Shown piece by piece: positions 19,617 through 59,670 of a stretch of 64,000 bases of DNA (its first letter is position 1; each line of letters begins with the position of its first letter). A program made the translations under genes and the position numbers. The notes beneath the pieces are model-generated. The model saw only the letters and a program-made list of their open reading frames with translations. It searched no databases and was not told the DNA's origin. Source of the DNA: Nitrospinota bacterium (GTDB lineage: Bacteria > Nitrospinota_A > UBA7883 > JACRGQ01); assembly GCA_016217735.1 (NCBI GenBank), contig JACRGQ010000059.1:5208-69207 (forward strand), written 5' to 3'.

Positions 19617-20280
19617 GATCGTATCCTCCTTGAAGAATCGGCTTCCTTGCCATGCCACCGCGGAACTTCCGCGTTCCGCCGAAAATCGGCGGCCGGACGC
19701 GCGTGGCGGCGCGCCCGCATCCCCAGCCACCCCAGCCGGGAATGTAGTGAAACGGTTTCAAAGGCTGTTGCTGGTCGGATTCCTCCTTTGGGGGCGAAGT
19801 CTTTGCGGACCCCACCCGGTTCCCACGTTTAAGATTTGCCAAGATAATCAGCGGTTCGCGCGGTGAGGTTTTTTGGAGAACGGACGGAGGAGAGGTGTAT
19901 CCGTTGATGGTTGTCACCCATCGGCGGAACACCGTACCCCCGGCGTTCTTGCCTTTGAAACCCTACGTTGCGAAACGCCAAATTTTTACCCCTTGGCGCT
20001 TCTCTACTTTTATCTAGATAACTTATCGACCCGGCAAAAAATTCCCATTACCCCTTTTTGGGGGTATTGGGGAAAAGCGTGCAGGAACTAAAGTTTTGCT
20101 TTTTTCAGCCGGGGGTGGGGGTGGGATTTCATTTCCCCGGCAGGATAGGCAACTTGTCCGCCTGTTGGCGCCACGCGCCAAGAAAGGCCGGCCTGCCGAT
20201 ATCACGCAGCCTGCGTGACCTGCCGGAAAAGGATTATAAATAAACGACGATAAAGTGCTTCTTAGTTCGCACAATCCTAC

Positions 20281-21288
20281 TTAACAGGTCTTAACGATAC
20301 GCCGTAGAAATTCCTCAAATGTTACACACCGATTAGGGGGAATTGCTGCTGCAATCCAGTTTTTCCCTCGGCCCGGTTTAATTGTCCCGTCCTTTTTTAA
20401 TGGCACCTTAAGATAAACTGGCTCATCCAAAAAGAAATAAGTATATTCTTTCGCTCCTTTATCCTTCTTTACTCCATCCATCCAACGCTCAACACACTCT
20501 GGAGCCTTATTCCCCTTTTCTTCTGCAAAACGCATTAAATCAGTTTTAAATTGACCAATATTTCGGGGAGCGACTGTTAATATTCCCAATATGCGTGCGA
20601 CACAGGGTATTCCCTCACCCTTTTCCTGCTTTGCGCTCCTTGTAAAATGAGGTGCAAAATATTGTGGATTTCCAAAAATAACATTTCTTCGATAAACCAA
20701 ACACTCATAGAACTTACGAACTTCTTCGGCTCTTCCCAAGTCTTGAACTAATATCTCTTTGCGCGACCTCATTGCAAATCCTCTCAATGCAAAACGAAAA
20801 AAATTTCCTGCTATTTGATTGTCCCAAAATGATTTTTCATCAAATGCACTTAAAACGTCACTCCATGTTAAGTCAACCACTCGAATATTCCCGGACGAGG
20901 ACTTGCGGGAACTGTTTTCCTGAGCAATAAAACATAGGATTCTATGTTTAGCATCTTTTTCGAAAGCAGATAAATATTGGGTTTTTTGCTTGCCAATACG
21001 ATTCTTCCTTACCTTACACTCAATAATTACTTGAAATGTTTTTTTTCGGTAAATATTTATATCTATTCTTCCCTCCTTTACGACCTTTTCAGTAGAAATT
21101 TCGACCTGTTGAAAATTACCTAAGTTGAACTTAACCTTCAAGCCGATAAAGCGTAAAAACTTATACAGAAACTTCGGCTCATGCCCTAATGTATACGCAA
21201 AAGCTTTAGATAAACCAACCTCATCGCTTCCCAAGAGATCAAAATTCGTTAAATGCGAACGATCGTAGCCAGCATTTTTTATGATCAT
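20281..21288 (-). CDS. hypothetical protein with N-terminal PD-(D/E)xK nuclease-like motif, in an AT-rich single-gene insertion
   Basis: A Glu, then GRIDINIY (Asp), then QVIIECKV (E-x-K) matches the restriction-endonuclease-like core. Strongly AT-rich relative to flanks. Confidence 0.55.
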   Translation of the reverse strand: MIIKNAGYDRSHLTNFDLLGSDEVGLSKAFAYTLGHEPKFLYKFLRFIGLKVKFNLGNFQQVEISTEKVVKEGRIDINIYRKKTFQVIIECKVRKNRIGKQKTQYLSAFEKDAKHRILCFIAQENSSRKSSSGNIRVVDLTWSDVLSAFDEKSFWDNQIAGNFFRFALRGFAMRSRKEILVQDLGRAEEVRKFYECLVYRRNVIFGNPQYFAPHFTRSAKQEKGEGIPCVARILGILTVAPRNIGQFKTDLMRFAEEKGNKAPECVERWMDGVKKDKGAKEYTYFFLDEPVYLKVPLKKDGTIKPGRGKNWIAAAIPPNRCVTFEEFLRRIVKTC

Positions 21289-22615: not shown

Positions 22616-23488
22616 TCACTGTTTTTTCGGGTTCAAATATTTGCCGATGATAGGCTTCAGCGCCAGCTTGGTCTTCGGCGGTATTTTTTTCGGATCGGTC
22701 ATTATGGTGTGGGCCAGCATGTGATTGCACCCGGCGGGGCAATCGGCGGCATCATCGATTTCGGCCACCGCTTCCTTGATGATCTTTTGCGACATCTCCA
22801 CGTTCTTGTGGATGATCTCCAGGATGGCGGCGGTGCTCACCTCCTCATGCCCTTCGTACCAGCAGTCGTAATCGGTGGACAGGGCGATGGTGACGTAGCA
22901 GATTTCCGCTTCGCGGGCCAGCTTCGCCTCGTTGAGATTGGTCATGCCGATGACGGACGCGCCCCACGAGCGGTACATGCGCGATTCGGCGCGGGTGGAG
23001 AACTGCGGCCCCTCCATATTCACATAGGCGCCGCCCACATGGGTGACGGCGCCGGCGCGTTTGGCCGCCGCGGAGGTCACGCCTATGAGGTGTTTGCAAA
23101 CGGGGTCGGCGAACGAGACGTGGGCCACCACGCCGTTGCCGAAGAATGTGCTGGCGCGGGCGAACGTGCGGTCGATGAACTGGTCGGGGAAAACGATGTG
23201 GCCCGGCGCGATCTCCTCCTTGAGGGAGCCGACGGCGGAGACGGAGAGGATTTTTTTCACCCCCAGCGTTTTGAAGCCGTAAATGTTGGCGCGGAAGTTC
23301 AGCTCACTCGGAAGTATCCGGTGGCCCCTGCCGTGGCGGGGGAGGAAAATAAGCTCTTTGCCGTTCAGCTCGCCGAACATGTATTCGTCGGTGGGGTTGC
23401 CGAAGGGGGTTTTGAGCTTTTTGGTTTTCTTTATTTTCAGCTCTTTCATGCCGTACAGGCCGCTGCCGCCTATAACACCTATCGCCAT
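22616..23488 (-). CDS. mtnP: S-methyl-5'-thioadenosine phosphorylase
   Basis: PNP/MTAP family: MAIGVIGGSGLY, HGRGH, MTNLNEAKLAREAEI. Confidence 0.9.
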   Translation of the reverse strand: MAIGVIGGSGLYGMKELKIKKTKKLKTPFGNPTDEYMFGELNGKELIFLPRHGRGHRILPSELNFRANIYGFKTLGVKKILSVSAVGSLKEEIAPGHIVFPDQFIDRTFARASTFFGNGVVAHVSFADPVCKHLIGVTSAAAKRAGAVTHVGGAYVNMEGPQFSTRAESRMYRSWGASVIGMTNLNEAKLAREAEICYVTIALSTDYDCWYEGHEEVSTAAILEIIHKNVEMSQKIIKEAVAEIDDAADCPAGCNHMLAHTIMTDPKKIPPKTKLALKPIIGKYLNPKKQ

Positions 23489-23536
23489 GTATCGCGCTCC
23501 GTGGATGGGGGTTGTGGGGGAAAAAGAGGAGCGGGA

Positions 23537-25819
23537 CTATTCCCGCTCCGCCTTTTGGTAATCGCCGATTTTCTTTTCGATCTCGCCCAGCAGGAAGCGG
23601 AGCTCGGTGATCTGCCCGGAGGCCTTGTCGATGATCTTTTCCTCGGAGGCGAGCACCTTGATCTTGGTCTTGATGTCTTCGGCGAGGAGGTTGAGATCGT
23701 TGAGCCGCTGTTCGGTGCGGTTGATAAGCGCCATGCGGGAGTTGAGGACGTCGATTTTGGTTTCGGCCTCGCCCATGATGGAGGAGAGGGACCTGATCTT
23801 GTCCGATATTTCGCCGAACGACTCCTGGTGCTTGGCGATCTTCCGTTCCTGCGCGCGAAGGTCTTCTATCTGCGAGGTGAGGACGAGAATGTCTTCCTGG
23901 ACTTTCTTGATGAGCGCCTCTTCCTTGCCGATCTGGTCGGCCTGGCGGGAGGTCTTTTCCATCATGTTGCCGAGCATGTTGAGCCGTTTTTCGGTCTCGA
24001 TGAGGAGTTCCTCTTCGTCGCGGACGCTTCCCAGCCGTTTTTCCAGGTCGGCCAGCCGCGCCTGGATGCCGCCCAGCTTCTCTTCGGTGCCCGCGAGCTG
24101 CTGGCTCCGGGAGGCGAGGCTGCTTATCTGGCCGTCCACCTTGTCGACCGCCGGCATGAGTTCTTCCTTGGCTTTGATGATTCCCTGCAGGAGGTTGTTC
24201 CCTTCCCGCACGTCTTCAAGCTTGCCCGACACGCTTTCCTCGATGACGACCAGCTTGCTGCCCAGCATCTGGAGGCGGCGCTCCTGGGCGTCTATGACGC
24301 TCTTCTCGCGGGTGATGTCCAGTATCTTCTCTTCCACCTGGCGGGTGATTTCGCGCAGGTCTTCCACTTTCTTGTCGAGGTTTTCGAGGAACTCGACCTT
24401 CTTGTTGATCCGGTCCACCTTCAGCGTGGCGTCTTCGATGTAGTAGTCGAGGCCGTCCAGCTTCTTCTCCAGCTTCTCGACGAGGGCCTTGCGCTGGAGC
24501 TGGTTTTCCATCTTCACATCGAGGTTGATGACGGTGGAAGAGAGGGTATTGACCTTTTTCTCCACCTGGTCGACGATGTTGCGGCGCGCCGAAAGGTCGT
24601 TCATCTGGGCGTTGAGCACTTCGTGCATGCCGCCCATCTTCTTGAGCTTCACTTCTATTTCTTCGCTGATCTTGATATCCTCGCGGAAGCGCTGGAGCTT
24701 GAGTTCGAGGTCGTCCGCCTCCTGCTGGAAGCGGGCCATTTTTTCGCGGGCGGACTCCACGGCCCCCATGTCATCCTTGAGTATCTTCATCTTGTTGCCG
24801 ATGGAATCGATGAGGAAGACGTTGAGCTTGTTGATCTTCTCCTCGGTGGCGGCCACCACGTCCTTGTCTTCGCGCACGCGGGTGACATTCACTTCCAGCT
24901 CGCTGTTCATTTCCTCAAGCTGCTTGAGCTTGGCGCCGATGCGCTTGATCATGTCTTCTTTCATCATGATGTTGCCGGTTTCCACGCGCAACGCGTTCAT
25001 GTCCTTGATCAGTTGGGCCACGTCGCGGTTCATCTGGGTCACCAGCGCGTTCTGGCGGAGCAGGTCTTCGCTGCTTGCCTGCAGGCGGCCGATGGTCTGC
25101 CCGATTTTCTCGATGTCCTGCCCGTAGCCGTCGATTTCTTCCTTCTGGCGGGCGATGCGGCCGATCTTGTCTTCCAGTTCGCGGCTGATGCCCTGCAAAC
25201 GGCCGATCTGTTCGTCCGAGGTTTTGAGCAGCCCCTTGAAGGTTTCGATGTCCTGCATCCGGTCGCCCACTTTGTCCAGCATCTCCTCGAGGCGGACGAT
25301 GCCCTTTTCGGTTTGCTTGACCAGCTTGTTCTCTTCGCCAAGCTTCTTGACCTTGGCTTCCATGTCCCAGATCAGGATGTTGAGCTTGCCGGCCTCTTCG
25401 TTGGCTTTTTCCACCACGAGCCGCTGCTGGTTCAGCGCCTTCACCTTGCTTTTCACATGTTCGGCGATCAGCGAGACCTCGTCCACCGCCATGCGGTGCT
25501 CATGCAGGCGGCCGGCGCTTTCTTCCACGCCGGAGGCGATGTCTTTCACGCGGATTTCGAGGTTGCGCAGTTCTTCGAATTTCCCCCCCATCTTGTCGGC
25601 GAATTCGCTGAAGAAGGGGATTTTGCTTTCGAGGTTCTTCATCGTGGTGACGTTCTGGTTCACCTTGTCGATGTTGTTCTGGATGTATTCGACGAGAAGG
25701 TTGAGGCTCTTGCGCTGCGCGTCGGCCTCTTTCACCAGATCGGCAAAGCGGTTAATGTCTTCCCGCGTGAGCTGCGCGTTCCCCTGCGCGGCCGTCTTTT
25801 CCTGTTCCATCGGCAACAA
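23537..25819 (-). CDS. long coiled-coil protein (about 760 aa), hypothetical
   Basis: Uninterrupted heptad-like K/E/L/I/Q-rich sequence with no recognisable enzymatic motif. The opposite-strand ORF (1047 aa) is low-complexity Ala/Gly/Val-rich and was rejected. Confidence 0.6.
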   Translation of the reverse strand: MLPMEQEKTAAQGNAQLTREDINRFADLVKEADAQRKSLNLLVEYIQNNIDKVNQNVTTMKNLESKIPFFSEFADKMGGKFEELRNLEIRVKDIASGVEESAGRLHEHRMAVDEVSLIAEHVKSKVKALNQQRLVVEKANEEAGKLNILIWDMEAKVKKLGEENKLVKQTEKGIVRLEEMLDKVGDRMQDIETFKGLLKTSDEQIGRLQGISRELEDKIGRIARQKEEIDGYGQDIEKIGQTIGRLQASSEDLLRQNALVTQMNRDVAQLIKDMNALRVETGNIMMKEDMIKRIGAKLKQLEEMNSELEVNVTRVREDKDVVAATEEKINKLNVFLIDSIGNKMKILKDDMGAVESAREKMARFQQEADDLELKLQRFREDIKISEEIEVKLKKMGGMHEVLNAQMNDLSARRNIVDQVEKKVNTLSSTVINLDVKMENQLQRKALVEKLEKKLDGLDYYIEDATLKVDRINKKVEFLENLDKKVEDLREITRQVEEKILDITREKSVIDAQERRLQMLGSKLVVIEESVSGKLEDVREGNNLLQGIIKAKEELMPAVDKVDGQISSLASRSQQLAGTEEKLGGIQARLADLEKRLGSVRDEEELLIETEKRLNMLGNMMEKTSRQADQIGKEEALIKKVQEDILVLTSQIEDLRAQERKIAKHQESFGEISDKIRSLSSIMGEAETKIDVLNSRMALINRTEQRLNDLNLLAEDIKTKIKVLASEEKIIDKASGQITELRFLLGEIEKKIGDYQKAERE

Positions 25820-25927
25820 CCTCCCTTTAACGCGAAACGGACACCGTCATAAACGCCGGCATTATACCCTCTTCGGGCGGCATTTTGGGGAAAACGCTTC
25901 CATCGGGAAGCCTTTCCCCGCTCCTCA

Positions 25928-40570: not shown

Positions 40571-41551
40571 TCAGGTTTTCCGCTGCAACACCCGCGTGAT
40601 TTTTATCGCCTTGTTGCCGCGCACCACGCCGGGAACCCCCATGTATTTCGGCACCCCTCCCACCGAGACCATCAGCTCGTCGGACACGTCGGTTCCCAGG
40701 GTGAGCACATCCCCCGCCTTGATGTTGATGAAGTCGCGGGAGGTGACGGTCGCCTCGCCCAGCTTTACCCGGCACTCCACCTCGGCCATCGCCAGGCGCT
40801 CGCGCAGGCGGCGCACCCAGGCGAGGTCCACTTCCAGCTGGTCGCTCTGGAAGCCGGCCTTCAGCTTGCCGATGATCGGTTCGATGGTCGAATACGGGAG
40901 GCACACGGTCAGGGTTCCGCTGAACTGATCCATTTCGACTTCGTACAGGATGACCACCACCACGTCGGTCGGGGGGACGATGGCGGCGAACTGCGGGTTC
41001 ACCTCGGACCGGACGAAGACCATGTCAACCGGATGCACCGGCGCCCAGGCCTTTTGCAGGTCGGCCAGCGCCATGATGATGACGTTCTTGATGATCCGCT
41101 GCTCGATGGTGGTGAAATCGCGCCCTTCGATCTTCATCTTGGCTTCGCCGCTGCCGCCGAAGAAGCTGTCCACCAGCGCGAAGACCATCTTTGATTCCGC
41201 CACCAGCAGCGCGAAGCCGCGCAGCGGCGTCATCCGGAAAATGTGCAGCGATGCGGGCACCGGAAGCGATTTGATGAATTCGCCGAACTTCACCGTGTCG
41301 GTGGAAACGGCGCTCACGTCCAGCACCTTGCGCAGCGCCGAGGAAAGCGAGTTGCGGAACAGGCGCGAGAACCGCTGGTTGATGATGTCCAGCGTCGGCA
41401 TTCTGCCGCGTATGATCCGTTCCTGGCTGGTCAGGTCGTACGCGACGACGCCGCCGTCGTCGCCGAGGTCTTCCGCCTCGGTTTCGATTTCCCCGTCGCT
41501 CACGCCGCGTAACAGCGCGTCGACTTCTTCCTGCGAAAGTATCTGGCTCAT
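40571..41551 (-). CDS. fliM: flagellar motor switch protein FliM
   Basis: MSQILSQEEVDALL N-terminal CheY-binding motif plus middle and C-terminal FliM domains. Confidence 0.9.
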   Translation of the reverse strand: MSQILSQEEVDALLRGVSDGEIETEAEDLGDDGGVVAYDLTSQERIIRGRMPTLDIINQRFSRLFRNSLSSALRKVLDVSAVSTDTVKFGEFIKSLPVPASLHIFRMTPLRGFALLVAESKMVFALVDSFFGGSGEAKMKIEGRDFTTIEQRIIKNVIIMALADLQKAWAPVHPVDMVFVRSEVNPQFAAIVPPTDVVVVILYEVEMDQFSGTLTVCLPYSTIEPIIGKLKAGFQSDQLEVDLAWVRRLRERLAMAEVECRVKLGEATVTSRDFINIKAGDVLTLGTDVSDELMVSVGGVPKYMGVPGVVRGNKAIKITRVLQRKT

Positions 41552-47659: not shown

Positions 47660-48736
47660 TTATGCTCCGTTGTCCGCCGTGAAAAAACGTTCTATCCATC
47701 CGCCGCCCGTCACGATGTCGCCGCGGTAAAAAACCGCCGCCTGTCCCGGCGCGACCGCCCGTTCCGGCTTGTCAAAGCGCACCTCCGCGCCGTCCGCCGT
47801 GAACCGGATGACGCCGTTGACCGGCGCGCGCCGGTGGCGCAACTGCACCGCCACCGCGCCGCCGCGCGGCTCTTCGTGAAGCGTGAGGTTCTTGATTTCC
47901 ACCGAGCCGGCGAGAAGCTCCTCTTCCGCGCCGAGGCGGATGACGTTTTGTTCCGCGTCGATATCGGTGACATACAGCCGCCCGCCCGCCGCCACGCCCA
48001 GTCCGCGGCGCTGCCCCACGGTGTAAAAGGGTATCCCCTTGTGCGCGCCGAGTTTTTTTCCTTTTTTGTCCACGAAGTCGCCGGGGGGGATGTTGAGTTC
48101 CAGCCCGGCGATGAATTTCTGATAGTCGTCGTCCGGCACGAAGCATATCTCCTGGCTGTCCGGCTTTTCCGCCGTCTTGAGGCCGTGCCGTGCCGCCACC
48201 GCGCGTGTTTCCTCCTTGGTCAGTTCCCCCACCGGGAAGAGAATTTCCCCCAGCGTTTCCGGCGGGACGTCGAACAGAAAGTAGCTTTGATCTTTTTCGG
48301 GGTCGCGCCCGCGCGCGAGGCGCTTGCGCCCGTCCAGTTCCACGATGCGGGCGTAGTGGCCGGTCGCCAGTTTGGCGCAGCCGAGCTGCCGCGCCTTTTT
48401 GAGGAGCAGGCCGAACTTCAGCACCCGGTTGCAGGCGATGCAGGGGTTCGGCGTCCGGCCCGATATGTATTCGTCCACGAAATAATCGACGACGCTCTTT
48501 TTGAATTCCTCTTTCATGTTGAGCGTGTAATGGGGGATGCCGAGCTGGTCGGCCACGCGGCGGGCGTCGTTCACATCGTCCAGCGAGCAGCAGGTTCGCT
48601 TCTCCGTTTCGGCGGGCGCGTCCCACAGGCGCATGGTGATGCCGATGACCCCATAACCCCGCTCCAGCAGCAGGGCCGCCGCGGCGGAGCTGTCCACCCC
48701 GCCGCTCATGGCGACAAGCACGTTTTCTTTATTCAT
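47660..48736 (-). CDS. mnmA: tRNA-specific 2-thiouridylase
   Basis: PP-loop VLVAMSGGVDSSAAA and the MnmA catalytic Cys blocks. Confidence 0.9.
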   Translation of the reverse strand: MNKENVLVAMSGGVDSSAAAALLLERGYGVIGITMRLWDAPAETEKRTCCSLDDVNDARRVADQLGIPHYTLNMKEEFKKSVVDYFVDEYISGRTPNPCIACNRVLKFGLLLKKARQLGCAKLATGHYARIVELDGRKRLARGRDPEKDQSYFLFDVPPETLGEILFPVGELTKEETRAVAARHGLKTAEKPDSQEICFVPDDDYQKFIAGLELNIPPGDFVDKKGKKLGAHKGIPFYTVGQRRGLGVAAGGRLYVTDIDAEQNVIRLGAEEELLAGSVEIKNLTLHEEPRGGAVAVQLRHRRAPVNGVIRFTADGAEVRFDKPERAVAPGQAAVFYRGDIVTGGGWIERFFTADNGA

Positions 48737-49680: not shown

Positions 49681-50514
49681 TCATGGCGCCGGGGCGTTTT
49701 CTTCGTCCGGCCCGGGCGGAAGGGCGGGGACGAGGGGAATATCCTGATTTTCCGTTTGGCCGTCCAGCAATGTGTCCTTCCGCAGGTCTTCCCAAATGGA
49801 AAGCCCCTTGTCCCGTTTCTGCATCACGCCGAGGATGGCGTTGGCGCGGGTCTCCACATAGCGCGAATCGCCGGTGGGGGAGAAGCGGATCGGGTTCGGC
49901 AGGACGGCGGCCAGCCGGCACGCTTCATCCGGCGTCAGTTGGCTGGCATGTTTGCCGTAATGGCGCCGCGCCGCTTCTTCAATGCCGAAAATGCCGGTTC
50001 CCCACTCCGCCACGTTCAGGTAAAGCTCCAATATCCGCTTTTTGCCCAGCTCGCGTTCAAGCCGGAGGGTTAAGAACGCCTCCTTTAGTTTGCGCATGGC
50101 GGTCTTTTCCGGCGAGAGGAAAATATTTTTCGCCAGCTGCTGGGTGATGGTGCTTCCTCCCGCTTTCATCGTGCCGGAGCGCATGTTTTTTTCCAGCGCG
50201 TCCTGTATCCCCGCCAGGTCGAAGCCGTAATGCTGCCAGAATTTATCGTCTTCGGAGATCAGCACCGCGTCCTGAACGAACGGGCTGATTTCGGCCAGCG
50301 GCGTCCATGTGTAGCGCAGCTTCACCTTTTTGTTTCCTTCCGCCCACTGCCGCTCGCGGAATTCCATGAAGGCCGTTTTTTTTGGGATGCCGGTCTTCAG
50401 GTGCGAGATGTCCGGCCAAATGAAGAACGTGGATACCCAGCCCGCGATGCCCACGACGATAAACCCGATAAAGGCCAAAAAACCGACGAGGCCCTTAAAA
50501 ACATATCTCACCAT
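49681..50514 (-). CDS. mtgA: monofunctional biosynthetic peptidoglycan transglycosylase
   Basis: GT51 motifs ISEDDKFWQHYG, GGSTITQQLAKN, RILELYLNVAEWG; N-terminal TM anchor. Confidence 0.85.
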   Translation of the reverse strand: MVRYVFKGLVGFLAFIGFIVVGIAGWVSTFFIWPDISHLKTGIPKKTAFMEFRERQWAEGNKKVKLRYTWTPLAEISPFVQDAVLISEDDKFWQHYGFDLAGIQDALEKNMRSGTMKAGGSTITQQLAKNIFLSPEKTAMRKLKEAFLTLRLERELGKKRILELYLNVAEWGTGIFGIEEAARRHYGKHASQLTPDEACRLAAVLPNPIRFSPTGDSRYVETRANAILGVMQKRDKGLSIWEDLRKDTLLDGQTENQDIPLVPALPPGPDEENAPAP

Positions 50515-50835
50515 CACATATTCCCGTCCGGTCAAAAAAGCCTGAATTCCGTTGCTGTTTCTGATATTTGCGGCATTGTGGAAAACACGATTATTGCAAG
50601 TTTTGCCGCGTACGCCAAATTATTTACGGCGTTGGGGCCGGGTGGGTGGATATGACAAAAGCAAAGGCGCGAAATATGGCGCATAACGGCATGTATTGCA
50701 ATGCGTTGCTGTTTTGTCAGGGGTCGCCGGACACGGATTCGGTGAGGGCATGGTGTTTGCATCCTTAATATTGAGCGGCAGATACCCGTCCGTTTTTTGG
50801 CGCTTCCTTGGGGAGCGGCTAACGGATGGGATATA

Positions 50836-53800
50836 ATGAAGCCCGTTGAGGAGGAGTATACGTTGAAGGAACAGGTGAGCGGTTCGGCCGTTGCCACCCG
50901 CATCTTCGCGGTTACCGGCACCGGCGGCGGTTGCGGCAAATCATTGGTTGCCGCGTTCGCCGCGGCGGCTCTGGCGCGCGCCGGGAAAAAGGTGCTGTTG
51001 CTGGATATTAATGAAGGCTCCAGCGCCGCCTGCCGCATTTTCGGCGTCACCGCTCCCGAAACATCCCTGATCGATTTCTACGCCAAGACCAAAAGCATAG
51101 CCGACCTCGCCGCGGAAACGCCGGTGAAGGGACTTTCGTTTCTCCGCGCGGCGGGAAGCCCCCGCGGCGGGCGCAACCGGATTCCGGCCCGCGGCAACCT
51201 GATACAACGGCTGCGCCGGTCGGGGGCGGATTATGTGGTGGTCGACATCGGCCGGATAGCCAATAGGCGTGCGGCCGATTATTTTCTCGGGGCCGACGGC
51301 CGCGCCATTATCGCCGCCGCCAGCGAACCGGGAATGGACGGTCTGCGCGACACCCTGTTGACAGTGGCTATTCGCCGGTTTGAACGGTTGGTAATAAAGG
51401 CGGAGGGCGGTGCGGAGGCGGTGCGCGAGATAGACAAAAAGCGAACCCTTGAGGCCGCTCCGCTGCTTGCCCACATTGGCGCCATGCTTAAATTGCGCTA
51501 TCCCCGCCTGTTGCCCGCGTGGGAACAGGCGCGCGCCGCGCTCGATTGCAACGTTATCGTCAACTCCGTTTCATCGCCGGATCACATGGAGGCCGCGGGA
51601 CGGAGGCTCAAGACCGCGCTCGACGGCGTGGGGATCGATGTCCGCAAGGTGTTTTACCTGCCGGTGTTCGTGTTGCCGCCGTCGCTGGCGCGGCCGGGGG
51701 CCAGTCCGCAACTGGACGCGGTGGGGCCGGTGGCGCTCGATATCGCCGGCGTGGAAGAACTGGGCGAGGAGCGGATGCGCCAGGGGCTGGAGCGCCTGTT
51801 TGGCGCGCCGGTGGCCGGGGCCGCGCCGCATGCCGCCGCCGAAAAGGCCGAGATGTTCGCCGCGCTGGAGCGGGAAATGGAGATGGAACGCGCGCGCCGC
51901 GCCGCCCTGCTGGAGCGGGAGATGGAGCGGCTCAAGACCGAGCGGAGCGCGCAGGCGGCCAAGCGGCTGGACGCCGAGCTGGCCGAACGCCGCAAGCGGG
52001 GCCTGGAAGAACTGAACGGATGGACGGAACAGCAGCGGCGTGAGCGTCAGATACGGCTCGATAAGGACTACGAAACCATGAAGGCGGATTGCGCCGCCCG
52101 CCTGACCGCCGAAACGGGATTGAAGGAACGCGAGGCGCTCGACGCCATGGACAAGGTGAAGGAGTACCGCCTCAAGGAGATCGACGCGCAGATCGAGGCC
52201 TACTACCGCGCCGCCAAGGTGGCCGCCGACCGCGATATCGCCCAGCGCCGCAAGATGGCGGAAACGGAAATCGACGGCGGCCTGCTGATGCAAAAAAAGA
52301 AGAAACTGGCCCGGATGGAAACGGAACTCGCCGAAGAGGTGGAAAAAATCCGCGAAATGATCTGGCAGCAGCTGGAGGAAAAACGCCGCGCCCGCATCGA
52401 AGAGATCGACCGCGCGGTGGAGGGCCACCGCGAAAATAAAATGCTGGCGGTGGATACCGAAGTTTCCGCCGTCCGGCGCGAAGTGGAAAAAGACCTCGAG
52501 GCGGAGATCGCCCGCACGCGCGATTACCTCACCGCCGACATCCACCGCGACGTGATGCTGCTTGCCGGCGAGATGGATGTGGAGGAGCACCGCCGCCGCG
52601 CCGGCATCCGCCGCACCCTGGAGCAGGAGACCGATGCCGAGCGCGCCATGATGAAAAAGGCGCTGATGGCGGAAATGGCCCGCCTGCGCGAAGAGAAGGA
52701 AAAGGAACTCGCCCCGCTGCTGGAAAAAATACGGCAGGAACGGCTGGCCCACCTGGAGCAGGAGATCGGGCGGCTGCGCGAGCAGATCAAGGGCCGCATG
52801 ACGATGGAGGCCGAACAGACCCGCCAGAAGCTGATGATGGAGGCGCAGACGGACGCCGGACGCCGCCGGGAGGAATTGCTGGCGCAACTGGAGGCCGACC
52901 GCCAGGCGCGGCTGGTGGATATGGGCCGCGACATCGCGCAGGACCGCGCCACCCGCATCGCCAGCCTGGACCGCGAAATGGCGCGCGTGGCGGACGATTT
53001 GCGCGCCAACATGGAACAGCGCGTGTCCGAGGAAGAGGCGCGCCTCACCGGCATGATGGAAGAGGCGATCCGCCAGAAGCGCAAGGAAAAGGAAGAGACG
53101 ATTATCGGCATCATCCGCGAGGAGCGGCAACGCCGCGTGCAGGAGCTGAACGAAGAACTGCTCCGCCAGCGCGAGGGTCTTATGGACGCCATCGCCGCCG
53201 AGATGCGCCTCTGCCGCGATCAGGAGATCGAAAAGGTGCGCGCCGAGATAACGCATATCCGCGCGCAGCGGCTCGGCCAGCTGGATCAGGATATGCAGGC
53301 GGAAATCCGCCGCAAGACCGAGGCGATGGGGCATACCATCCGCGATGTGGAGACCGCCATGCGCGGCGAAATGCGGGAACGCATAAGCGCCGAGGAAACG
53401 CGCATGCGTAAAGCGCTGGCCGAGGAGATCAATGCCGAAATGGCCGAGATGCGCGCCCGCGTACGCGCCGATATCGGCGACGAAGAGACGCGCCTGAAAG
53501 CCGGGCAGAAGGCCGCGCTGGAAGATGACCGCAAGCGGCGGCTGGAGGCGTGGGACCGGGAGATGGAGTTGCGCCGGAGCAAGGCCGAGGAGTCCCTGCG
53601 GGAGTGGCAGGAGCGTGAAAGGATGCGCCTGCTGGGCGAGCTGGACGTGAAACTGCAAGAGGAAGGGCAGGTAAGGCGCGAGCTGCTGGAAAGCCGCGTG
53701 GAGTACGACAGGAAAAAAATCGCCGACGAAATCGCCGCCCACCGCCGGAAGGCGGAGGAGGATGAACAGCGCCGGATGAAACTCTGGGCCGAGCACAAAC

Positions 53801-54756
53801 GCGAAGAATCGGTGGCGCAGATTAAACGTTTCATCAAGGAAGAGCATCAGCGCCGGCTGGAAGAGCTGACCGAAACGATGGAAGGGGAAAAACGGGACCG
53901 CTTGGCCGGTATCGGCAATGACCTGCAGGCGGAGCGGCAGAGGCAGTTCGCGGAATTGACCGCCGCGATGCAGCGCGAAAAGGAAGCGCGGCTCCTCAAG
54001 CTGGACGACGAAATCGCCCGGCTGCGCGATGAGCGCGCGCGCGAGTCGGCGCGGTTCGCGGACGAAGAGGCCCGCCGCATGGAAGAGCGGATTGATCAAC
54101 GCTACCGCGATCTGGCCAAAAAAAAGGAAGAGTGGCTGGAATTCGAAAGCCGCCGCCGCCTGGTGGAGATGCGCGAAAGCATCGAACGCGAGGCCGAGGC
54201 CGAAAAGGAAAAGCGGCTGCAGGCGCGGATGGTGGAAATCGAAGATGAGCTGGCCGACCGCCGCCGCAAGGCGAAGGCCGCCGTTGAAGAGGAGCGCGCC
54301 CGCCTGACCCTGGCGCTGCGCGAAGAGCTGAACATGCGGCGCAAGATCATGATCCGCAAGATGACCGCGCGCCTTAGGACCAAGGTGGCCGAACGGCAAA
54401 AGAAGATAGAAGGGGAACTGGGCTTGATGAGCGCCCGTCGCGGGATGGATGTGGAAAAAGACATGCTGGATCAACGGAGCAACCGCGTGGCGCGGATGGA
54501 GGCGGAATTGACCCGCGAACGCGAACGGCGCGTGGCCGCCATGCTGGACGAAATACGGGCCGAACAGGACATCAAGCGCCAGGAGATCATCATGGAAATG
54601 GTGAAAAAAAAGGAAGACCTGGATCGCCTGTACGAGCAGGAAAAGCGCAACTACCTGGAAAAGCTCCAGAGCGAAATCCTCAAGAGCAAAAACATCACCT
54701 CGGAATACCTCCAAAGCGAGCTGGACCGCGTGCAAAAATCCTGGCGCAACAACTAA
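50836..54756 (+). CDS. giant (1306 aa) ParA/MinD-like P-loop ATPase fused to ~1000 aa of Glu/Arg/Lys-rich coiled-coil low-complexity sequence
   Basis: N-terminus IFAVTGTGGGCGKSLVAAF...KVLLLDIN...YVVVDIG resembles a deviant Walker A/B ParA fold. From about residue 330 on, unbroken ER(K)-rich heptads (EREMEMERARRAALLEREMERLKTER...) run to the stop. Confidence 0.8.
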   Translation: MKPVEEEYTLKEQVSGSAVATRIFAVTGTGGGCGKSLVAAFAAAALARAGKKVLLLDINEGSSAACRIFGVTAPETSLIDFYAKTKSIADLAAETPVKGLSFLRAAGSPRGGRNRIPARGNLIQRLRRSGADYVVVDIGRIANRRAADYFLGADGRAIIAAASEPGMDGLRDTLLTVAIRRFERLVIKAEGGAEAVREIDKKRTLEAAPLLAHIGAMLKLRYPRLLPAWEQARAALDCNVIVNSVSSPDHMEAAGRRLKTALDGVGIDVRKVFYLPVFVLPPSLARPGASPQLDAVGPVALDIAGVEELGEERMRQGLERLFGAPVAGAAPHAAAEKAEMFAALEREMEMERARRAALLEREMERLKTERSAQAAKRLDAELAERRKRGLEELNGWTEQQRRERQIRLDKDYETMKADCAARLTAETGLKEREALDAMDKVKEYRLKEIDAQIEAYYRAAKVAADRDIAQRRKMAETEIDGGLLMQKKKKLARMETELAEEVEKIREMIWQQLEEKRRARIEEIDRAVEGHRENKMLAVDTEVSAVRREVEKDLEAEIARTRDYLTADIHRDVMLLAGEMDVEEHRRRAGIRRTLEQETDAERAMMKKALMAEMARLREEKEKELAPLLEKIRQERLAHLEQEIGRLREQIKGRMTMEAEQTRQKLMMEAQTDAGRRREELLAQLEADRQARLVDMGRDIAQDRATRIASLDREMARVADDLRANMEQRVSEEEARLTGMMEEAIRQKRKEKEETIIGIIREERQRRVQELNEELLRQREGLMDAIAAEMRLCRDQEIEKVRAEITHIRAQRLGQLDQDMQAEIRRKTEAMGHTIRDVETAMRGEMRERISAEETRMRKALAEEINAEMAEMRARVRADIGDEETRLKAGQKAALEDDRKRRLEAWDREMELRRSKAEESLREWQERERMRLLGELDVKLQEEGQVRRELLESRVEYDRKKIADEIAAHRRKAEEDEQRRMKLWAEHKREESVAQIKRFIKEEHQRRLEELTETMEGEKRDRLAGIGNDLQAERQRQFAELTAAMQREKEARLLKLDDEIARLRDERARESARFADEEARRMEERIDQRYRDLAKKKEEWLEFESRRRLVEMRESIEREAEAEKEKRLQARMVEIEDELADRRRKAKAAVEEERARLTLALREELNMRRKIMIRKMTARLRTKVAERQKKIEGELGLMSARRGMDVEKDMLDQRSNRVARMEAELTRERERRVAAMLDEIRAEQDIKRQEIIMEMVKKKEDLDRLYEQEKRNYLEKLQSEILKSKNITSEYLQSELDRVQKSWRNN

Positions 54757-55119: not shown

Positions 55120-56496
55120 ATGATGATGGCTGCGGCAAAAAACGGAAACGATTTCGATATCATCATCGTGGGCGGCGGTCCGGCGGGCCTCAGCGTCGCC
55201 TCGGAGATGGCGAAAAAAAAGTACCGCGTGCTGGTGCTGGAAAAAGAAACCGCCGGCCAGACCAAGCGGAGCTGGTTCGTCCCCCCGTTTGTGCTGGACG
55301 CGGAAACAAAGCAATTCAGCTACGGCGGCGTCACCCGCTTCCTCGCCGCCACCTATTCCGGCGCCAAAACGCAATGGCGCGCGAAACTGTTCCCCGCCTA
55401 TCCCTACATCGATGAGAAGAAGATACTCCCCTACTGGGTGGACGTGATTCAAAAGAACGGTTCCACCATTATGGACAACACCGCATACGTCAGCCATTAT
55501 GTAAGCGGCGGTCAGGTGCATGTGACCACCGCCAAGGGGATATTCAAGGCGCCCCTGCTGCTGGATGCCTCCGGCTACAACAGCCCGGTGATCAAACAAC
55601 TCCGGATGGAGGATGACAGCTACTACTGGTGGTCGGTTTACGGCGCCGTTCTTGAGATGCCGCTCACCGGCGGCCTTGAGATCGGCGATTACATGATGTG
55701 GCAAACGTTCAAGGACACCAACGCCAACCCCAAAGCTTCGCTTGCGCATGGCCGCCCGGTGTTCGAGTACGAAGTGCTGGGGCCGAACAGGGTTTTCGCG
55801 CTGCTGCTCTTTCTGCGCAAAAAACAGGTGACCAAGGAAGCCATGGCGCCGCTTTTCGAGCGGATGCTGCGGAAGGAGAATTCCACCGCGCCATTCCACG
55901 GCGCAAAGGTGATAGAGGAAAAATTCGGCTGGTATCCCAGCGGCGAGGTATCGCAGAACAAAGCGGCCGACCGCGTGGCGTTCATCGGCGACGCCGGCTG
56001 CTGGACAACCCCCTGCGGGTGGGGGATGACCTTCATTTTGCAGAACTACAAAACCTACGCCGAAAGGTTGGATGAGACCATCAAACAGGGACGGCTGGAC
56101 GCCGAGGCGCTGCAGGAAATTCCTGCGTTGCGCGTGACCGAAGAATTTCAGGTGGTGTTCGACAAACTGGTGATGCACTTCCTCTCCAACGCGCCCGCGC
56201 CGATGCTGGACAAATTCATCAACTTCTTCAACCAGATCGACCCGATACTGTGCGAACGGATGTTCACCCTCACGCTCACCGAGGAGGACTTCAAGGAATC
56301 AATCGCCCTCTTTTTGAAAAACTTCACGTTCGGCGAACTTATCCAGGTGCTGCCGGTGGAGGACTACAAGCTGGTGGTGCGGGTGGCGAAACTTTCGATC
56401 GCGGCATTCATCGCCGCGTATTGGTACCGGTTCATTGATTGGTTGACCGGGCGGAAAAACAACAAGGTCGAAGGCTTCAGCTACGAGGAGGACTGA
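55120..56496 (+). CDS. FAD-dependent oxidoreductase (geranylgeranyl-reductase / lycopene-cyclase-like)
   Basis: N-terminal dinucleotide-binding fold DIIIVGGGPAGLSVA. Confidence 0.75.
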   Translation: MMMAAAKNGNDFDIIIVGGGPAGLSVASEMAKKKYRVLVLEKETAGQTKRSWFVPPFVLDAETKQFSYGGVTRFLAATYSGAKTQWRAKLFPAYPYIDEKKILPYWVDVIQKNGSTIMDNTAYVSHYVSGGQVHVTTAKGIFKAPLLLDASGYNSPVIKQLRMEDDSYYWWSVYGAVLEMPLTGGLEIGDYMMWQTFKDTNANPKASLAHGRPVFEYEVLGPNRVFALLLFLRKKQVTKEAMAPLFERMLRKENSTAPFHGAKVIEEKFGWYPSGEVSQNKAADRVAFIGDAGCWTTPCGWGMTFILQNYKTYAERLDETIKQGRLDAEALQEIPALRVTEEFQVVFDKLVMHFLSNAPAPMLDKFINFFNQIDPILCERMFTLTLTEEDFKESIALFLKNFTFGELIQVLPVEDYKLVVRVAKLSIAAFIAAYWYRFIDWLTGRKNNKVEGFSYEED

Positions 56497-56527
56497 CTGC
56501 GGCGCCCCCGTGGGCTATAATAGGGTT

Positions 56528-57487
56528 ATGGGGAAACGGAAGATTTACGTTAACCTTGATCCCGCCTACCGGATGCCCGGCCACAAATCGGCGTTTAGCT
56601 ATCTTGTCCGGCGGCTCGGACGCGGCCTCGCCGAACGGCCCGGCGGCGCCGCGCGGGAGGCCATTGCCGCCGAAGTGGAGCGCGAAGTCTGGAGCCGCAT
56701 CGAGCCGGCGAAAAACATCGCCGCGTGGGTGGGACACTCCACCGTTCTCTGCCGCCAGCAGGGGCATTTTTACATCACCGACCCGATTTTTTCCGACCGG
56801 GCGTCGCCGTTCCCCTTTTTCGGGCCGCGGCGCTACACCTCCCCCGCCTTCGAACCGGAAGAGATGCCGAAGATAGATTTCGTGCTCATCAGCCACAGCC
56901 ACTACGACCACCTCGACCTCCCGTCGGTGCTGGCGTTGCAGCGGATGTACCAGCCGGTGTTTTTCGTGCCGGATGGACTGAAGCGGTGGTTCAAGCACCG
57001 GGGGATTTCCAACGCCGTCGAAGTGCCGTGGTGGGGCGCGGTGAAACACCACGGGTTGACCATCCACAGCGTGCCGGCGCAGCACTACTCCTCGCGCACG
57101 CCGTGGGACCGCAACCGGAGCCACTGGTGCGGCTGGGTGGTGGAAGGAAAAAAAACTTTCTACTATCCCGGCGATACCGGCTTCGGATCGTTCTTCCCCC
57201 GGATTGGCGAACAGTACGGGCCGATAGACCTGGCGGCCATGCCCATCGGCTGTTACAGCCCGCGGGAGCTGATAAAGGCGCACCACCTCAACCCCGAAGA
57301 GGCGCTGGAGGCTTTTACGCAGGTGCGGGGGAAAAAGTTTTTGGCCATCCACTGGGGCGCGTTCGACATGACCGACGAGCCGTGGGACGAGCCGCCCGCG
57401 CGCCTGATCACGGAAGCGGCGCGGCGCGGGTTTTCGGCCGACGGGCATATCAACGTCGTCCGCATCGGCGATACGCTGGATTGGTAG
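56528..57487 (+). CDS. MBL-fold metallo-hydrolase (NAPE-PLD-like / Zn-dependent hydrolase)
   Basis: ISHSHYDHLD metal-binding motif and downstream His/Asp ligands. Confidence 0.8.
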   Translation: MGKRKIYVNLDPAYRMPGHKSAFSYLVRRLGRGLAERPGGAAREAIAAEVEREVWSRIEPAKNIAAWVGHSTVLCRQQGHFYITDPIFSDRASPFPFFGPRRYTSPAFEPEEMPKIDFVLISHSHYDHLDLPSVLALQRMYQPVFFVPDGLKRWFKHRGISNAVEVPWWGAVKHHGLTIHSVPAQHYSSRTPWDRNRSHWCGWVVEGKKTFYYPGDTGFGSFFPRIGEQYGPIDLAAMPIGCYSPRELIKAHHLNPEEALEAFTQVRGKKFLAIHWGAFDMTDEPWDEPPARLITEAARRGFSADGHINVVRIGDTLDW

Positions 57488-57901: not shown

Positions 57902-59002
57902 TCAGAATGACAGCGGTTGCTCCCCCGTTTGGCCGAGCTTGAGGTTGTCCAGCGTGCCGGCGATTTTAACCGCCTGCACGTTGGCCTTGTCGAACTGCGT
58001 GTGCGCGTTGGCGATGTGCTTGCCCAGCACGTCGAAGGTCTCCTGGAATTTCTGGAAGTTCACCTGCAAATCGAGTATCGCGTGGATTATTTCCTGCGCG
58101 CGCTTTTCCACCGCCATTCCCCGGAAGCCGACGGCGAGCGCCTGAAAATAGACGAACAGGAAATTCGGCGAGGCGGGCACCACCCGCATATCCATCAGCG
58201 CCTGATGCAACTCGTGGTTGCCGACGATCTCAAGGAATACCCCCTCTGCGGGAACGAACATGACGGCGAAATCAAGCGTCACCCGCGGCACGATATACCG
58301 CTGGGCGATTTCCTTGGCCCGCTTGCGCACGTCGGCGTGGAACTGCGAAAGAAACCTGTCCCGCTCCGGCCCCGGCGCGGCCTCGTAAAATTTGACGAGG
58401 TTCGCCGCTGGAAACTTGCTGTCGATACAAAGGACGCGTTCTTCCAAAAGAATGGCGGCGTCGACGATCCCATCGCCGATTTTGTGCTGGAAACGGAGCC
58501 GCTCGGCCGGGACGGCCTGCTTGAGCAACAGTTCCATTTGCCATTCGCCGTAACTGCCGCGGCTCTTGGAGCCTTCAAGAATCTGGTTCAGGTTGCGGAT
58601 GTCGCCGCCGATTTCCACCATCCGGCCCGAGGCGGCTTTGAGGTCGGCGGTTTCCTTGATGAGTTTTTCCAGCCGCTCGGCAAGTATCTGCTGCGACCTG
58701 CCGAGACTGTCGGCGATCTCTTTGCGGCCGTGCTGCATCGATTCGGCCAGCTTCCCCTGCGTATCGCCAAAGCCGGAGGTGATGGCGGCGCGGCTCTCCT
58801 CGCGTACGCGGGTGATGGTTTCGAGCAGCGTTTTGGTCTGGTCGATGAGTTGCGCGTTGAGGGTCTGCTGCATCAGCGCGAGGTCCTGCTTCATTCCGGC
58901 ATCGGGCGCGGCTGATTTTTTCCCCAGCGCATAGACGGCGGCACCGGCGATGGCGGCGACTCCCGCGATTAAAAACCCTTCCAGCAAATCCATATCCGCC
59001 AT
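57902..59002 (-). CDS. rmuC: DNA recombination protein RmuC
   Basis: N-terminal TM segment and coiled coil, C-terminal RmuC nuclease-like domain. The track ORF continues upstream of the ATG at 59002 (start chosen as MADMDLLEG) without protein-like sequence. Confidence 0.8.
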   Translation of the reverse strand: MADMDLLEGFLIAGVAAIAGAAVYALGKKSAAPDAGMKQDLALMQQTLNAQLIDQTKTLLETITRVREESRAAITSGFGDTQGKLAESMQHGRKEIADSLGRSQQILAERLEKLIKETADLKAASGRMVEIGGDIRNLNQILEGSKSRGSYGEWQMELLLKQAVPAERLRFQHKIGDGIVDAAILLEERVLCIDSKFPAANLVKFYEAAPGPERDRFLSQFHADVRKRAKEIAQRYIVPRVTLDFAVMFVPAEGVFLEIVGNHELHQALMDMRVVPASPNFLFVYFQALAVGFRGMAVEKRAQEIIHAILDLQVNFQKFQETFDVLGKHIANAHTQFDKANVQAVKIAGTLDNLKLGQTGEQPLSF

Positions 59003-59025
59003 TATCCACGAAAAATTGAGGGTAC

Positions 59026-59100
59026 AACAGGTTTTAACCTGTTGTTGGCCCGTTAGGGCCAAGAAGGAATTTGCCCCTTCAGGGGCAACCAAGAATGAAT
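59026..59100. repeat. structured intergenic repeat, family 2, compact copy (three hairpins)
   Basis: ACAACAGGTT-ttaa-CCTGTTGT; GGCCC-gtta-GGGCC; TTGCCCC-ttca-GGGGCAA. Confidence 0.5.
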
Positions 59101-59121
59101 TCTGTGGTACCAAGAGAGAGG

Positions 59122-59670
59122 TCAGCCGAAGGAATAGAAAAGGAGCTTTGTGTCGCCGTACCGCTTTTCCTTGATCGGCTCGAACTCCGGCGGTTGCAGG
59201 CCTTTGCTGGGCATTTCCAGAATCAAAATCCCGTCGGGCAACAGCGCTTTGGCGTTGTACGCGGCGGTCAGCAGGGCGCTTCTTCCGTCCCAATCGTACG
59301 GCGGGTCGCAATAGATGAAATCGAACCGGTTGTTGTCCTGCCCGCATCCGCGCAAAAATTCCACCGCGTCCTGTTTCACCACCCGCGTCTGGGCGGGGGC
59401 TGGCAGCATCTTGCTCACCTTTTCGACGTTTTGGCGGATGAGCACCACCGAGGGGAGGTGGTGTTCGACGATGGTCACGGAAGCCGCGCCGCGGCTGAGC
59501 GCCTCGCAGCCAATCGCGCCGGTGCCGCTGAAGAGGTCGCAAAAGGAATCCCCTTCCACCTCGATCATGTTGAACAGCGCCTGCCGGACTTTGTCCGGCG
59601 TGGGGCGTATTTTTTTATTGCCCGGCCCGGCCAGTGTGCAGCCGCGGGCGTGTCCTCCGACTATTCTCAT
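59122..59670 (-). CDS. rsmD: 16S rRNA (guanine966-N2)-methyltransferase
   Basis: MRIVGG start; LFSGTGAIG AdoMet motif; DPPY catalytic motif. Confidence 0.85.
   Translation of the reverse strand: MRIVGGHARGCTLAGPGNKKIRPTPDKVRQALFNMIEVEGDSFCDLFSGTGAIGCEALSRGAASVTIVEHHLPSVVLIRQNVEKVSKMLPAPAQTRVVKQDAVEFLRGCGQDNNRFDFIYCDPPYDWDGRSALLTAAYNAKALLPDGILILEMPSKGLQPPEFEPIKEKRYGDTKLLFYSFG

Follow-up and report, generated by a model that had tools for sequence, protein, structure and literature searches.

How a nucleotide-binding domain of the MinD/ParA type may be used when it is joined to a very long helical tail is the question raised by one gene in the window analysed here, which comprises 64,000 nucleotides of DNA from a Nitrospinota bacterium (contig JACRGQ010000059.1, assembly GCA_016217735.1). 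This gene, referred to below as the giant gene, encodes a protein of 1306 amino acids (aa) and starts with an ATG at position 50836, an alternative in-frame TTG start being located upstream at 50797; its features and neighbours are collected in Table 1. In an original prediction the gene had been described as a long reading frame without internal stops in which a positioning ATPase is covalently fused to a charged tail, and both points hold, as a single uninterrupted open reading frame (ORF; 50836-54756, plus strand) links a MinD/ParA-type P-loop domain to an all-helical tail of about 970 aa. The same prediction held that this tail consists of nearly pure heptads, and here the outcome is different: the tail, or stalk, is a pentadecad (15/4) hydrophobic repeat that runs over 971 residues without a register break.

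The tail (residues 336-1306), in which E (18%), R (16%), A (12%), L (9%) and K (7%) are prominent, includes a single proline, and its net charge is -5. Its hydrophobic periodogram displays a single sharp peak at 3.750 residues with a power of 13.3, compared with a maximum of 2.0 in 200 shuffles, and the power elsewhere is low (0.44 at 3.6 and 0.39 at 11/3), including a value of only 0.18 at the heptad period of 3.5, which contradicts the heptad claim. The same peak is found at 3.745-3.750 in eight aligned members of the family to which the protein belongs (power 11-14), three metagenome members that were tested at two periods reach 9.6-14.0 at 3.75 and about 0 at 3.5, and the power at 3.5 lies between 0.00 and 0.24 in all members. 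From residue 301 up to the carboxy-terminus at 1306 the local 15/4 phase shifts by no more than about one residue, and when the tail is arranged in 65 rows of 15 residues from residue 336, hydrophobic residues concentrate at positions 1 (74%), 5 (68%), 13 (52%), 12 (30%) and 9 (29%). Positions 1, 5, 9 and 12/13 match the h, l, a and d/e positions of a pentadecad, the core residues are Leu, Ile and Met, and the best autocorrelation lags of the tail are 15, 120, 30, 75, 45 and 90. Searches with the tail against Pfam (in three pieces) and against the PDB sequences gave no match.

This periodicity bears directly on a further element of the original prediction, namely that the tail is a polyampholyte comparable to trichohyalin or to the charged single alpha-helices (SAH) of microtubule-associated proteins, in which case the ParA-type positioning ATPase would be followed by an entropic or elastic spacer. 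An SAH has no hydrophobic seam and needs none, and its E/K/R content is very high. The giant tail does resemble such helices in being E/R/K-rich (D+E+K+R 47%) and predicted all-helical, and in having many salt-bridge pairs, opposite charges at i to i+3 and i to i+4 being enriched (z 3.8 and 3.3, respectively). However, E+K+R amounts to only 41.5%, whereas 25% of the residues are hydrophobic (LIVMFWY) and form one coherent, phase-locked seam over 971 residues, conservation is position-specific with invariant Trp, Met and Leu, and most insertions and deletions (indels) are limited to near-integral numbers of helical turns. The spacer interpretation is thus largely refuted by the observed periodicity and must be considered quite improbable.

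The stalk is also as conserved as the head, the mean top-residue fraction among nine diverse members being 0.50 for the tail and 0.47 for the head, and members align colinearly over about 1300 residues. The most conserved tail stretches are residues 491-527, 936-960, 1085-1114 and 1236-1306; in the first of these E501, E507, W510, Q511 and E514 are invariant, and in the third R1089 and E1099 are invariant, as is W1100 in the 8-sequence alignment only. The family carboxy-terminus reads W-[RQH]-x-N in 10 of 11 members (P0100 ends in SLRLN), with an invariant terminal Asn. Length is maintained as well, in that the 796 residues from W510 to the carboxy-terminus are free of indels in seven of the ten relatives (L001, L002, P0003, P0100, P0111, L015 and L017), two of which are only 22-23% identical, and that L015 (49% identical) has no indel anywhere in the 971-residue tail. 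Past about residue 350 the tail indels are mostly of 11 (at least seven occurrences), 4, 16 and 131 residues, sizes that lie within about a quarter turn of whole turns at 3.75, the exceptions being a 1-residue insertion beside the 16-residue deletion of P0100 and a 2-residue insertion near the carboxy-terminus of L016. For example, five distant members carry at residue 396 a segment of 11 residues that the window clade lacks, another such segment at about 684-691 is missing from P0002 and L016, and P0001 lacks 131 + 11 tail residues. No Gly/Pro hinge was detected, in that no tail column of the 8-sequence alignment is Gly or Pro in six of the eight sequences. Because length and three rod islands are conserved exactly, the stalk may well be a fixed-length strut, tether or ruler, and the earlier proposal of a ruler or scaffold tail is in this respect a reasonable reading.

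The same observations speak to the possibility that the gene is an artefact, either a fused or mis-assembled ORF or a functionless low-complexity run. Such a suspicion could draw on the extreme base composition of the region, where the AT skew reaches +0.40 at 52-54 kb (a strong purine skew), and on an antisense ORF of 1054 aa, but both are by-products of the tail composition. Moreover, the same layout, an intact ORF of 1158-1339 aa, occurs at 10 other loci, which excludes a pair of genes joined by a missed stop codon and brings the count to eleven independent loci. In a comparison of the window with its closest relative L001 (82-85% amino-acid identity), the ratio of non-synonymous to synonymous substitution rates (dN/dS) is 0.138 for the head and 0.105 for the tail at a dS of 0.72. 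Together with the invariant residues and conserved islands of the stalk, this conservation already refutes an artefact, in agreement with the original assessment, and the probability left to it is negligible. The antisense ORF itself (51571-54735, minus strand; Leu/Phe/Ala/His-rich) is not a gene: it falls within the giant gene and arises as a shadow of the GAR/CGN-rich codons on the sense strand.

According to PMC9858780, a pentadecad has 0.12 residues per turn more than the 3.63 of an alpha-helix, and the right-handed supercoil to which it gives rise equals in magnitude the left-handed one of heptads; the quindecad pitch is given as about 200 Å, and right-handed coiled coils are described as 'extremely rare' (PMC3639240). 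As the periodicity of 3.75 is greater than 3.63 residues per turn, the seam of the giant stalk would be buried only by a right-handed supercoil. In this arithmetic, 120 residues correspond to 32 seam turns, to 33 helical turns and to one superhelical turn of about 18 nm, and a continuous rod of 971 residues at 0.1485 nm each would measure about 144 nm. The seam is flanked on one side by positions 4 and 8, which are mainly acidic, and on the other by positions 9, 12 and 13, which are Arg-rich, and the in-register i to i+5 pairs across it (4 to 9 and 8 to 13) comprise 26 attractive versus 5 repulsive ones. These acidic and basic flanks, and the balance of the pairs, would favour a parallel, in-register homo-oligomer.

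A different arrangement would be one in which the stalk folds back on itself, as in SMC or Rad50, to form an intramolecular antiparallel coiled coil of about 70 nm, with the W-R-x-N peptide regulating the head. An ATPase head on a long coiled coil does recall SMC proteins, the extreme carboxy-terminus is conserved, and the AlphaFold2 (AF2) model of the tail monomer, which consists of helices of 93-253 residues plus a 17-residue carboxy-terminal helix with no globular part, is broken at six places, three of which coincide with family indel sites. On the other hand, neither Gly/Pro nor a loop is conserved in the stalk, the insertion of 11 residues at 396 (five members) and the deletion of 11 at about 690 (two members) occur without a compensating indel at the pairing site, antiparallel pairing would bring like-charged flanks together, and the head is a complete MinD fold and not a split ABC head. 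A folded-back stalk is consequently regarded as unlikely.

As regards the head, residues 1-322 are modelled in the MinD/ParA (SIMIBI) nucleotide-binding fold, and their identity as a P-loop NTPase domain is supported by Pfam matches to CbiA (33.1 bits against a cut-off of 25.4) and AAA_31 (28.4 against 27). The Pfam ParA model (24.0 against 27.1) and MipZ stay below their cut-offs, as do the NCBIfam models for MinD, ParA, BcsQ and eps (minD_bact 20.9 against 212.9). A family profile searched against the PDB retrieved BceF (1e-17), FlhG (1.4e-16), FleN (1e-15) and archaeal MinD (8e-14). The AF2 model of the head, computed from a 43-sequence alignment, has a mean predicted local distance difference test (pLDDT) score of 86 and a predicted template modelling score (pTM) of 0.86; in a Foldseek search this model matched FlhG (4rz2) and FleN (5j1j) best and Soj and MinD next, with a probability of 1.00 for FlhG, FleN, Soj, MinD, MipZ and McdA, and an extra helical insert is situated at about residues 186-234.

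That BceF (6z0p, E 1.1e-17) is the top profile match and TIGR01007 (eps_fam) the top NCBIfam match could indicate that the head is a domain of the bacterial tyrosine kinase (BY-kinase) type, particularly as BY-kinases are also devoid of the signature lysine discussed below. BY-kinases are characterised by the motifs DxDxR and DTPP. The giant head has instead VLLLDINEG and VVVDIG, the TIGR01007 match reaches 37.9 bits against a cut-off of 108.05, and the template modelling (TM) scores of the head model are 0.34-0.46 to BceF/Wzc versus 0.51-0.72 to FlhG/MinD. Furthermore, there is no carboxy-terminal tyrosine cluster and no polysaccharide gene nearby, so that a kinase-like head is very improbable.

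The motifs quoted in the original prediction, GTGGGCGKS at residues 28-36 and YVVVDIG at 133-139, are present as described. Across the 43-sequence head alignment G32, G34, K35, D57, D137 and N243 are invariant, K35 and D137 being so in all alignments made, and Asp57 is retained in 10 of the 11 giant members (L016 has Glu, in VLLVEMGG). The designation of this domain as a deviant-Walker ATPase can nevertheless be upheld only in part, given that the P-loop and its motifs are there but the position of the signature lysine in KGGxxGK[ST] is occupied by Thr29 in the window and by T, S, N, G or C in all 11 giant members, whereas the lysine is present in 138 of about 150 shorter relatives. The signature lysine is described as the defining feature of ParA/MinD ATPases (PMC9178275, PMC7182216, bioRxiv 10.1101/2022.06.09.495121). 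Judged by its sequence and modelled fold, the head would fall outside the ParA/MinD group on this residue and inside it on the fold and on the Lys/Asp/Asp set. The linker that follows the head model has a pLDDT of 40 at the model's carboxy-terminal end and varies in sequence and length across the family.

The last head helix, EERMRQGLERLFG (window positions 51766-51804, residues 311-323), resembles the MinD membrane-targeting sequence, which in E. coli reads …KGFLKRLFGG. This 'GLERLFG' motif is internal, preceding the linker, and apart from the window protein only L001 and L002 have it conserved, P0001 and L015 retaining a part; it was rejected as a family feature for being limited to the window clade.

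Based on these elements, the giant protein would be a cytoplasmic, rod-shaped, structural protein composed of a head, a short flexible linker and an uninterrupted helix of 971 residues. The head, which keeps the Mg-nucleotide-binding residues Lys35, Asp57 and Asp137 without the trans-acting signature lysine, would probably work as a slow nucleotide-dependent switch for dimerisation or docking and not as a fast-cycling positioning ATPase. The seam would be buried by winding of the helices into a right-handed supercoil with approximately one turn per 120 residues, giving a parallel in-register homo-oligomer, most simply a dimer, which would hold its two heads at one end and, at a distance of about 145 nm, its two W-R-x-N carboxy-termini at the other. 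Such a rod may link the binding target of the head to targets of the three islands and the carboxy-terminal peptide, in the role of a fixed-length strut, tether or ruler.

Several points weigh against this proposal. The AF2 model of the tail monomer is of low confidence (pLDDT 64, pTM 0.23) and contains the six breaks mentioned above, and the seam is sparse, with about 2.5 hydrophobic residues per 15, so that the stalk could instead bind another elongated partner. The expected 120-residue super-period yields, in a row-shuffle test, z values of about 2 in six of nine members (mean 1.5) whose sequences are not independent; a super-repeat of 120 residues is accordingly suggestive, not established. 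Having lost the signature lysine, the head could be a pseudo-enzyme, and no conserved neighbour, named homologue or cultured host provides a functional handle. Taking both sides into account, the proposal that a nucleotide-switch head sits on a strut of about 145 nm formed by a parallel, right-handed coiled coil is given a probability of about 0.5. A bolder version holds that the stalk is longer than any other regular right-handed (pentadecad) coiled coil found so far, that its length and its repeat of about 18 nm are maintained by selection, and that, capped by a MinD-derived switch, it represents, in a bacterial phylum that branches deeply, a new kind of cytoskeletal ruler or strut, for example one spanning approximately the cell radius in slender Nitrospina-type rods; this is tentative and, on present evidence, rather doubtful.

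An exhaustive HMMER search with residues 1-330 retrieved 1351 relatives at E <= 0.001, two of them below 1e-30, and five representatives from this search are 1158-1339 aa long. Contig scans added two genome loci, namely L001, which is a Nitrospinales metagenome-assembled genome, and L002, at 68% identity to the window protein, as well as three new metagenome loci, resulting in a family of 11 distinct loci, each with one intact and colinear ORF. Only four giant-family loci were found among 241 million metagenome records, and the sequence clusters of the family are tiny (1-4 sequences each). The family is thus rare and unnamed, and comes from Nitrospinota wherever a taxon is given, its members being labelled 'hypothetical protein [Nitrospinae/Nitrospinota bacterium]' with one automatic 'BcsQ'; the original statement that the architecture does not belong to a described family is consistent with this. 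In the open-access literature searched and in family libraries, neither a ParA/MinD-fold protein fused to such a rod nor a pentadecad coiled coil near this length is described, and searches of this literature for ParA/coiled-coil fusions in Nitrospina and for long pentadecad or quindecad proteins brought up no such protein.

Shorter proteins with a similar organisation do exist. In P0015 (732 aa), where the signature lysine is absent, the tail is of the 15/4 type (power 4.8) and includes the EMVW…LE motif of the giant stalk's island at residues 491-527. P0072 (600 aa) keeps the signature lysine, and its E/K-rich tail, about 300 aa long, gives a 15/4 signal that is weaker. In the E/K/R-rich tails of these two proteins the 15/4 power is 3.0-4.8 and that at 3.5 about 0. 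Because both show 15/4 tails, the head-plus-pentadecad architecture exists in several lengths, and the idea may be older and broader than the giant family. Among the nearest short head relatives, P0008 (444 aa) combines a MinD-like ATPase with a carboxy-terminal PilZ (cyclic di-GMP-binding) domain.

The giant gene appears to stand alone, and its context assigns no function. An all-against-all BLAST of the ORFs within 8 kb at the 11 loci identified no flanking family in at least three loci, sharing of neighbours being limited to pairwise synteny between close relatives, and the neighbours at other loci include kdsA with a PIN/Phd toxin-antitoxin pair, DsrEFH, a DksA/RpoZ/FliN-like cluster and a weak FlgM match. 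Inspection by eye of the 300 bp upstream of the giant gene found no sigma-54 or sigma-28 promoter with correct spacing, a sigma-70 scan found nothing upstream of it on the plus strand, and the PADLOC defence-system models gave no meaningful match.

A role in organising flagella, chemosensory arrays or the nucleoid, as put forward in the original prediction, finds no direct support in this context, fliM and flagellin lying 9 and 31 kb away and being separated from the giant gene by housekeeping genes. A more specific version of the flagellar idea is that the protein is a specialised regulator of the FlhG/FleN type that controls how many flagella there are or where they are placed, its rod serving to measure or bridge a distance at the cell pole or from one flagellar base to another. 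The hints in this direction are that FlhG and FleN are the closest solved structures, that the host genome is flagellated (Table 1), and that flagellar genes lie by two distant members. These are a weak FlgM-like match (L013, 4116-4295, minus strand), divergent and beside the P0003 gene, and a 122-aa FliN-like gene (L014, 3241-3609, minus strand), which belongs to a DksA/RpoZ/DUF1844 cluster upstream of the P0002 gene, 1.4 kb away; they are the only flagellar genes close to any giant member. FlhG has a carboxy-terminal amphipathic helix, but the corresponding MinD-type motif of the giant protein is internal and seen only in the window clade. In addition, the window gene lies outside a flagellar operon, with mnmA, mtgA, the oxidoreductase, the hydrolase and rmuC as neighbours, no flagellar neighbour recurs in at least three of the 11 loci, and identity to FlhG is only 17-19%. 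The signature lysine is missing as well, whereas FlhG and FleN are listed with KGGVGK[ST] (PMC9178275). A flagellar regulator is therefore considered an unlikely identity for the giant protein.

Table 1. Coordinates of the giant gene, of its protein features and of surrounding genes in the 64,000-nucleotide window.
Feature	Position	Strand	Protein residues and remarks	Basis
Giant gene	50836..54756	+	1306 codons + TAA	ORF list, translation
Head, MinD/ParA-fold P-loop NTPase domain (modelled), closest FlhG/FleN	50836..51801	+	1-322	Pfam, PDB profile search, AF2, Foldseek
Walker A, GTGGGCGKS	50917..50943	+	28-36	G28, G32, G34, K35 invariant in family alignments
Walker A'/switch I strand, VLLLDINEG	50992..51018	+	53-61; matches LLLD of FlhG	Alignments
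Walker B, YVVVDIG	51232..51252	+	133-139	Asp137, Gly139 invariant in alignments
Flexible Gly/Ala/Pro linker between head and stalk, GAPVAGAAPHAAA	51802..51840	+	323-335	pLDDT, alignment
Stalk, all alpha-helical	51841..54753	+	336-1306; 65 consecutive pentadecads (15/4)	Periodogram, phase, mod-15 table, AF2
Top-conserved stalk island, …EVEKIREMIWQQLEEKR…	52306..52416	+	491-527	Conservation scan, nine members, maximum 0.83
Conserved island, …KKKEEWLEFESRRRL…; KKEEWLEFE	54088..54177	+	1085-1114	Alignments
Conserved C-terminus	54541..54753	+	last 71 residues, ending KSWRNN-COOH	Alignments
Flagellin	18765-19730		31 kb from giant gene	
fliM	40571-41551		9 kb from giant gene	
mnmA	47660-48736	-		
mtgA, monofunctional transglycosylase	49681-50535	-	divergent	
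Flavin adenine dinucleotide (FAD) oxidoreductase / lycopene-cyclase-like gene	55120-56496	+		
Metallo-beta-lactamase (MBL)-fold hydrolase	56510-57487	+		
rmuC	57902-59542	-		

The window contains further features of note. A second long helical-repeat protein, of 760 aa and rich in E, L, K and I, is encoded at 23537-25819 (minus strand), next to an MTAP-like gene and hemL; the hydrophobic periodogram of this protein has its maximum at 3.455 (power 16.6) and next to no power at exactly 3.5, and the best autocorrelation lags of 31, 93 and 62 correspond to about 24 repeats of 31 residues (31/9 = 3.44). An ORF of 1047 aa at 22709-25852 (plus strand), without a Pfam match, is the shadow of this 760-aa gene. 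Two islands at 10286-14379 and 20281-21288 (both minus strand) are of low GC content (0.41-0.48, with 0.33-0.43 at third codon positions, compared with about 60% GC in the genome) and were probably acquired horizontally; they encode a type I/IIG restriction-modification methylase with a specificity subunit, and a PD-(D/E)XK nuclease.

Understanding the giant family may be of broader relevance. Right-handed coiled coils are known only as short segments, such as those of rotary-ATPase stator stalks, the VASP tetramerisation domain, adhesin stalks and tetrabrachion, and a set of 65 phase-locked pentadecads would, if true, provide an exceptional system in which to learn how right-handed supercoils behave mechanically and by what rules they are designed. 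ParA/MinD ATPases are thought of as small diffusible switches with separate partners, and a MinD fold welded to a 145-nm rod, without the defining lysine or an operon partner, would point to a different use of the fold, in which the head could anchor or regulate a structural element of fixed length. In addition, Nitrospinota is a phylum with almost no cell-biological data, for which this family gives a concrete target of study.

With respect to known systems, the head shares with FlhG, FleN and MinD the fold, the strand order, the GK[ST] of Walker A and the Asp residues of the A' and B motifs, and it differs from them in its identity of 17-19%, in the replacement of the signature lysine in 11 of 11 members and in its extra helical insert. 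Where MinD ends in a short amphipathic membrane helix the giant protein has its 971-residue stalk, and none of the partner genes MinE/MinC, FlhF or ParB lies alongside the giant gene. Replacement of the signature lysine has a precedent in type 1 McdA, a carboxysome-positioning protein of the ParA/MinD fold that has Ser at this position (SGGQGKT; PMC7182216, PMC9178275). Type 1 McdA is an active ATPase in which the distal Lys151 replaces the signature lysine, and type 2 McdA proteins are of 210-228 aa (PMC7182216). Given this precedent the giant head could also work without the lysine, although no Lys151 equivalent has been identified in it, and McdA is small and has a separate coiled-coil partner, McdB.

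SMC, MukB and Rad50 likewise carry an ATPase head on a very long coiled coil. Their heads, however, are of the ABC type, assembled from the amino- and carboxy-termini at the end of an antiparallel heptad hairpin with a hinge, whereas the giant protein has a complete amino-terminal MinD fold, no hinge and a 15/4 repeat. A thematic parallel is offered by Scy of Streptomyces, which recruits ParA, so that a rod and a ParA-type ATPase are common to both systems. Scy and FilP are, like the giant protein, bacterial rods of about 1000 residues made almost entirely of a non-heptad repeat (PMC9858780). Both Scy and FilP are made of hendecads, and the repeat of Scy (11/3, nearly straight) has an Ala-rich core, in contrast to the 15/4 repeat of the giant stalk with its Leu/Ile/Met core and a power of 0.39 at 11/3; Scy has a DivIVA-like amino-terminus and a separate ParA, is actinobacterial where the giant family is from Nitrospinota, and has no sequence similarity to the giant tail. 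The 15-residue, 4-turn periodicity itself is shared with the right-handed E-G peripheral stalk of A/V-ATPases, the VASP tetramerisation domain and YadA-type stalks (PMC3639240, PMC9858780). The peripheral-stalk coil extends over 140-160 Å and is half quindecad (PMC3639240), compared with 65 repeats and a predicted length of about 1440 Å in the giant protein. In conclusion, the head fold and long non-heptad bacterial rods are already known, and what would be new, judged by the literature and family libraries searched, is the combination of a MinD fold with a pentadecad rod and the length of that rod.

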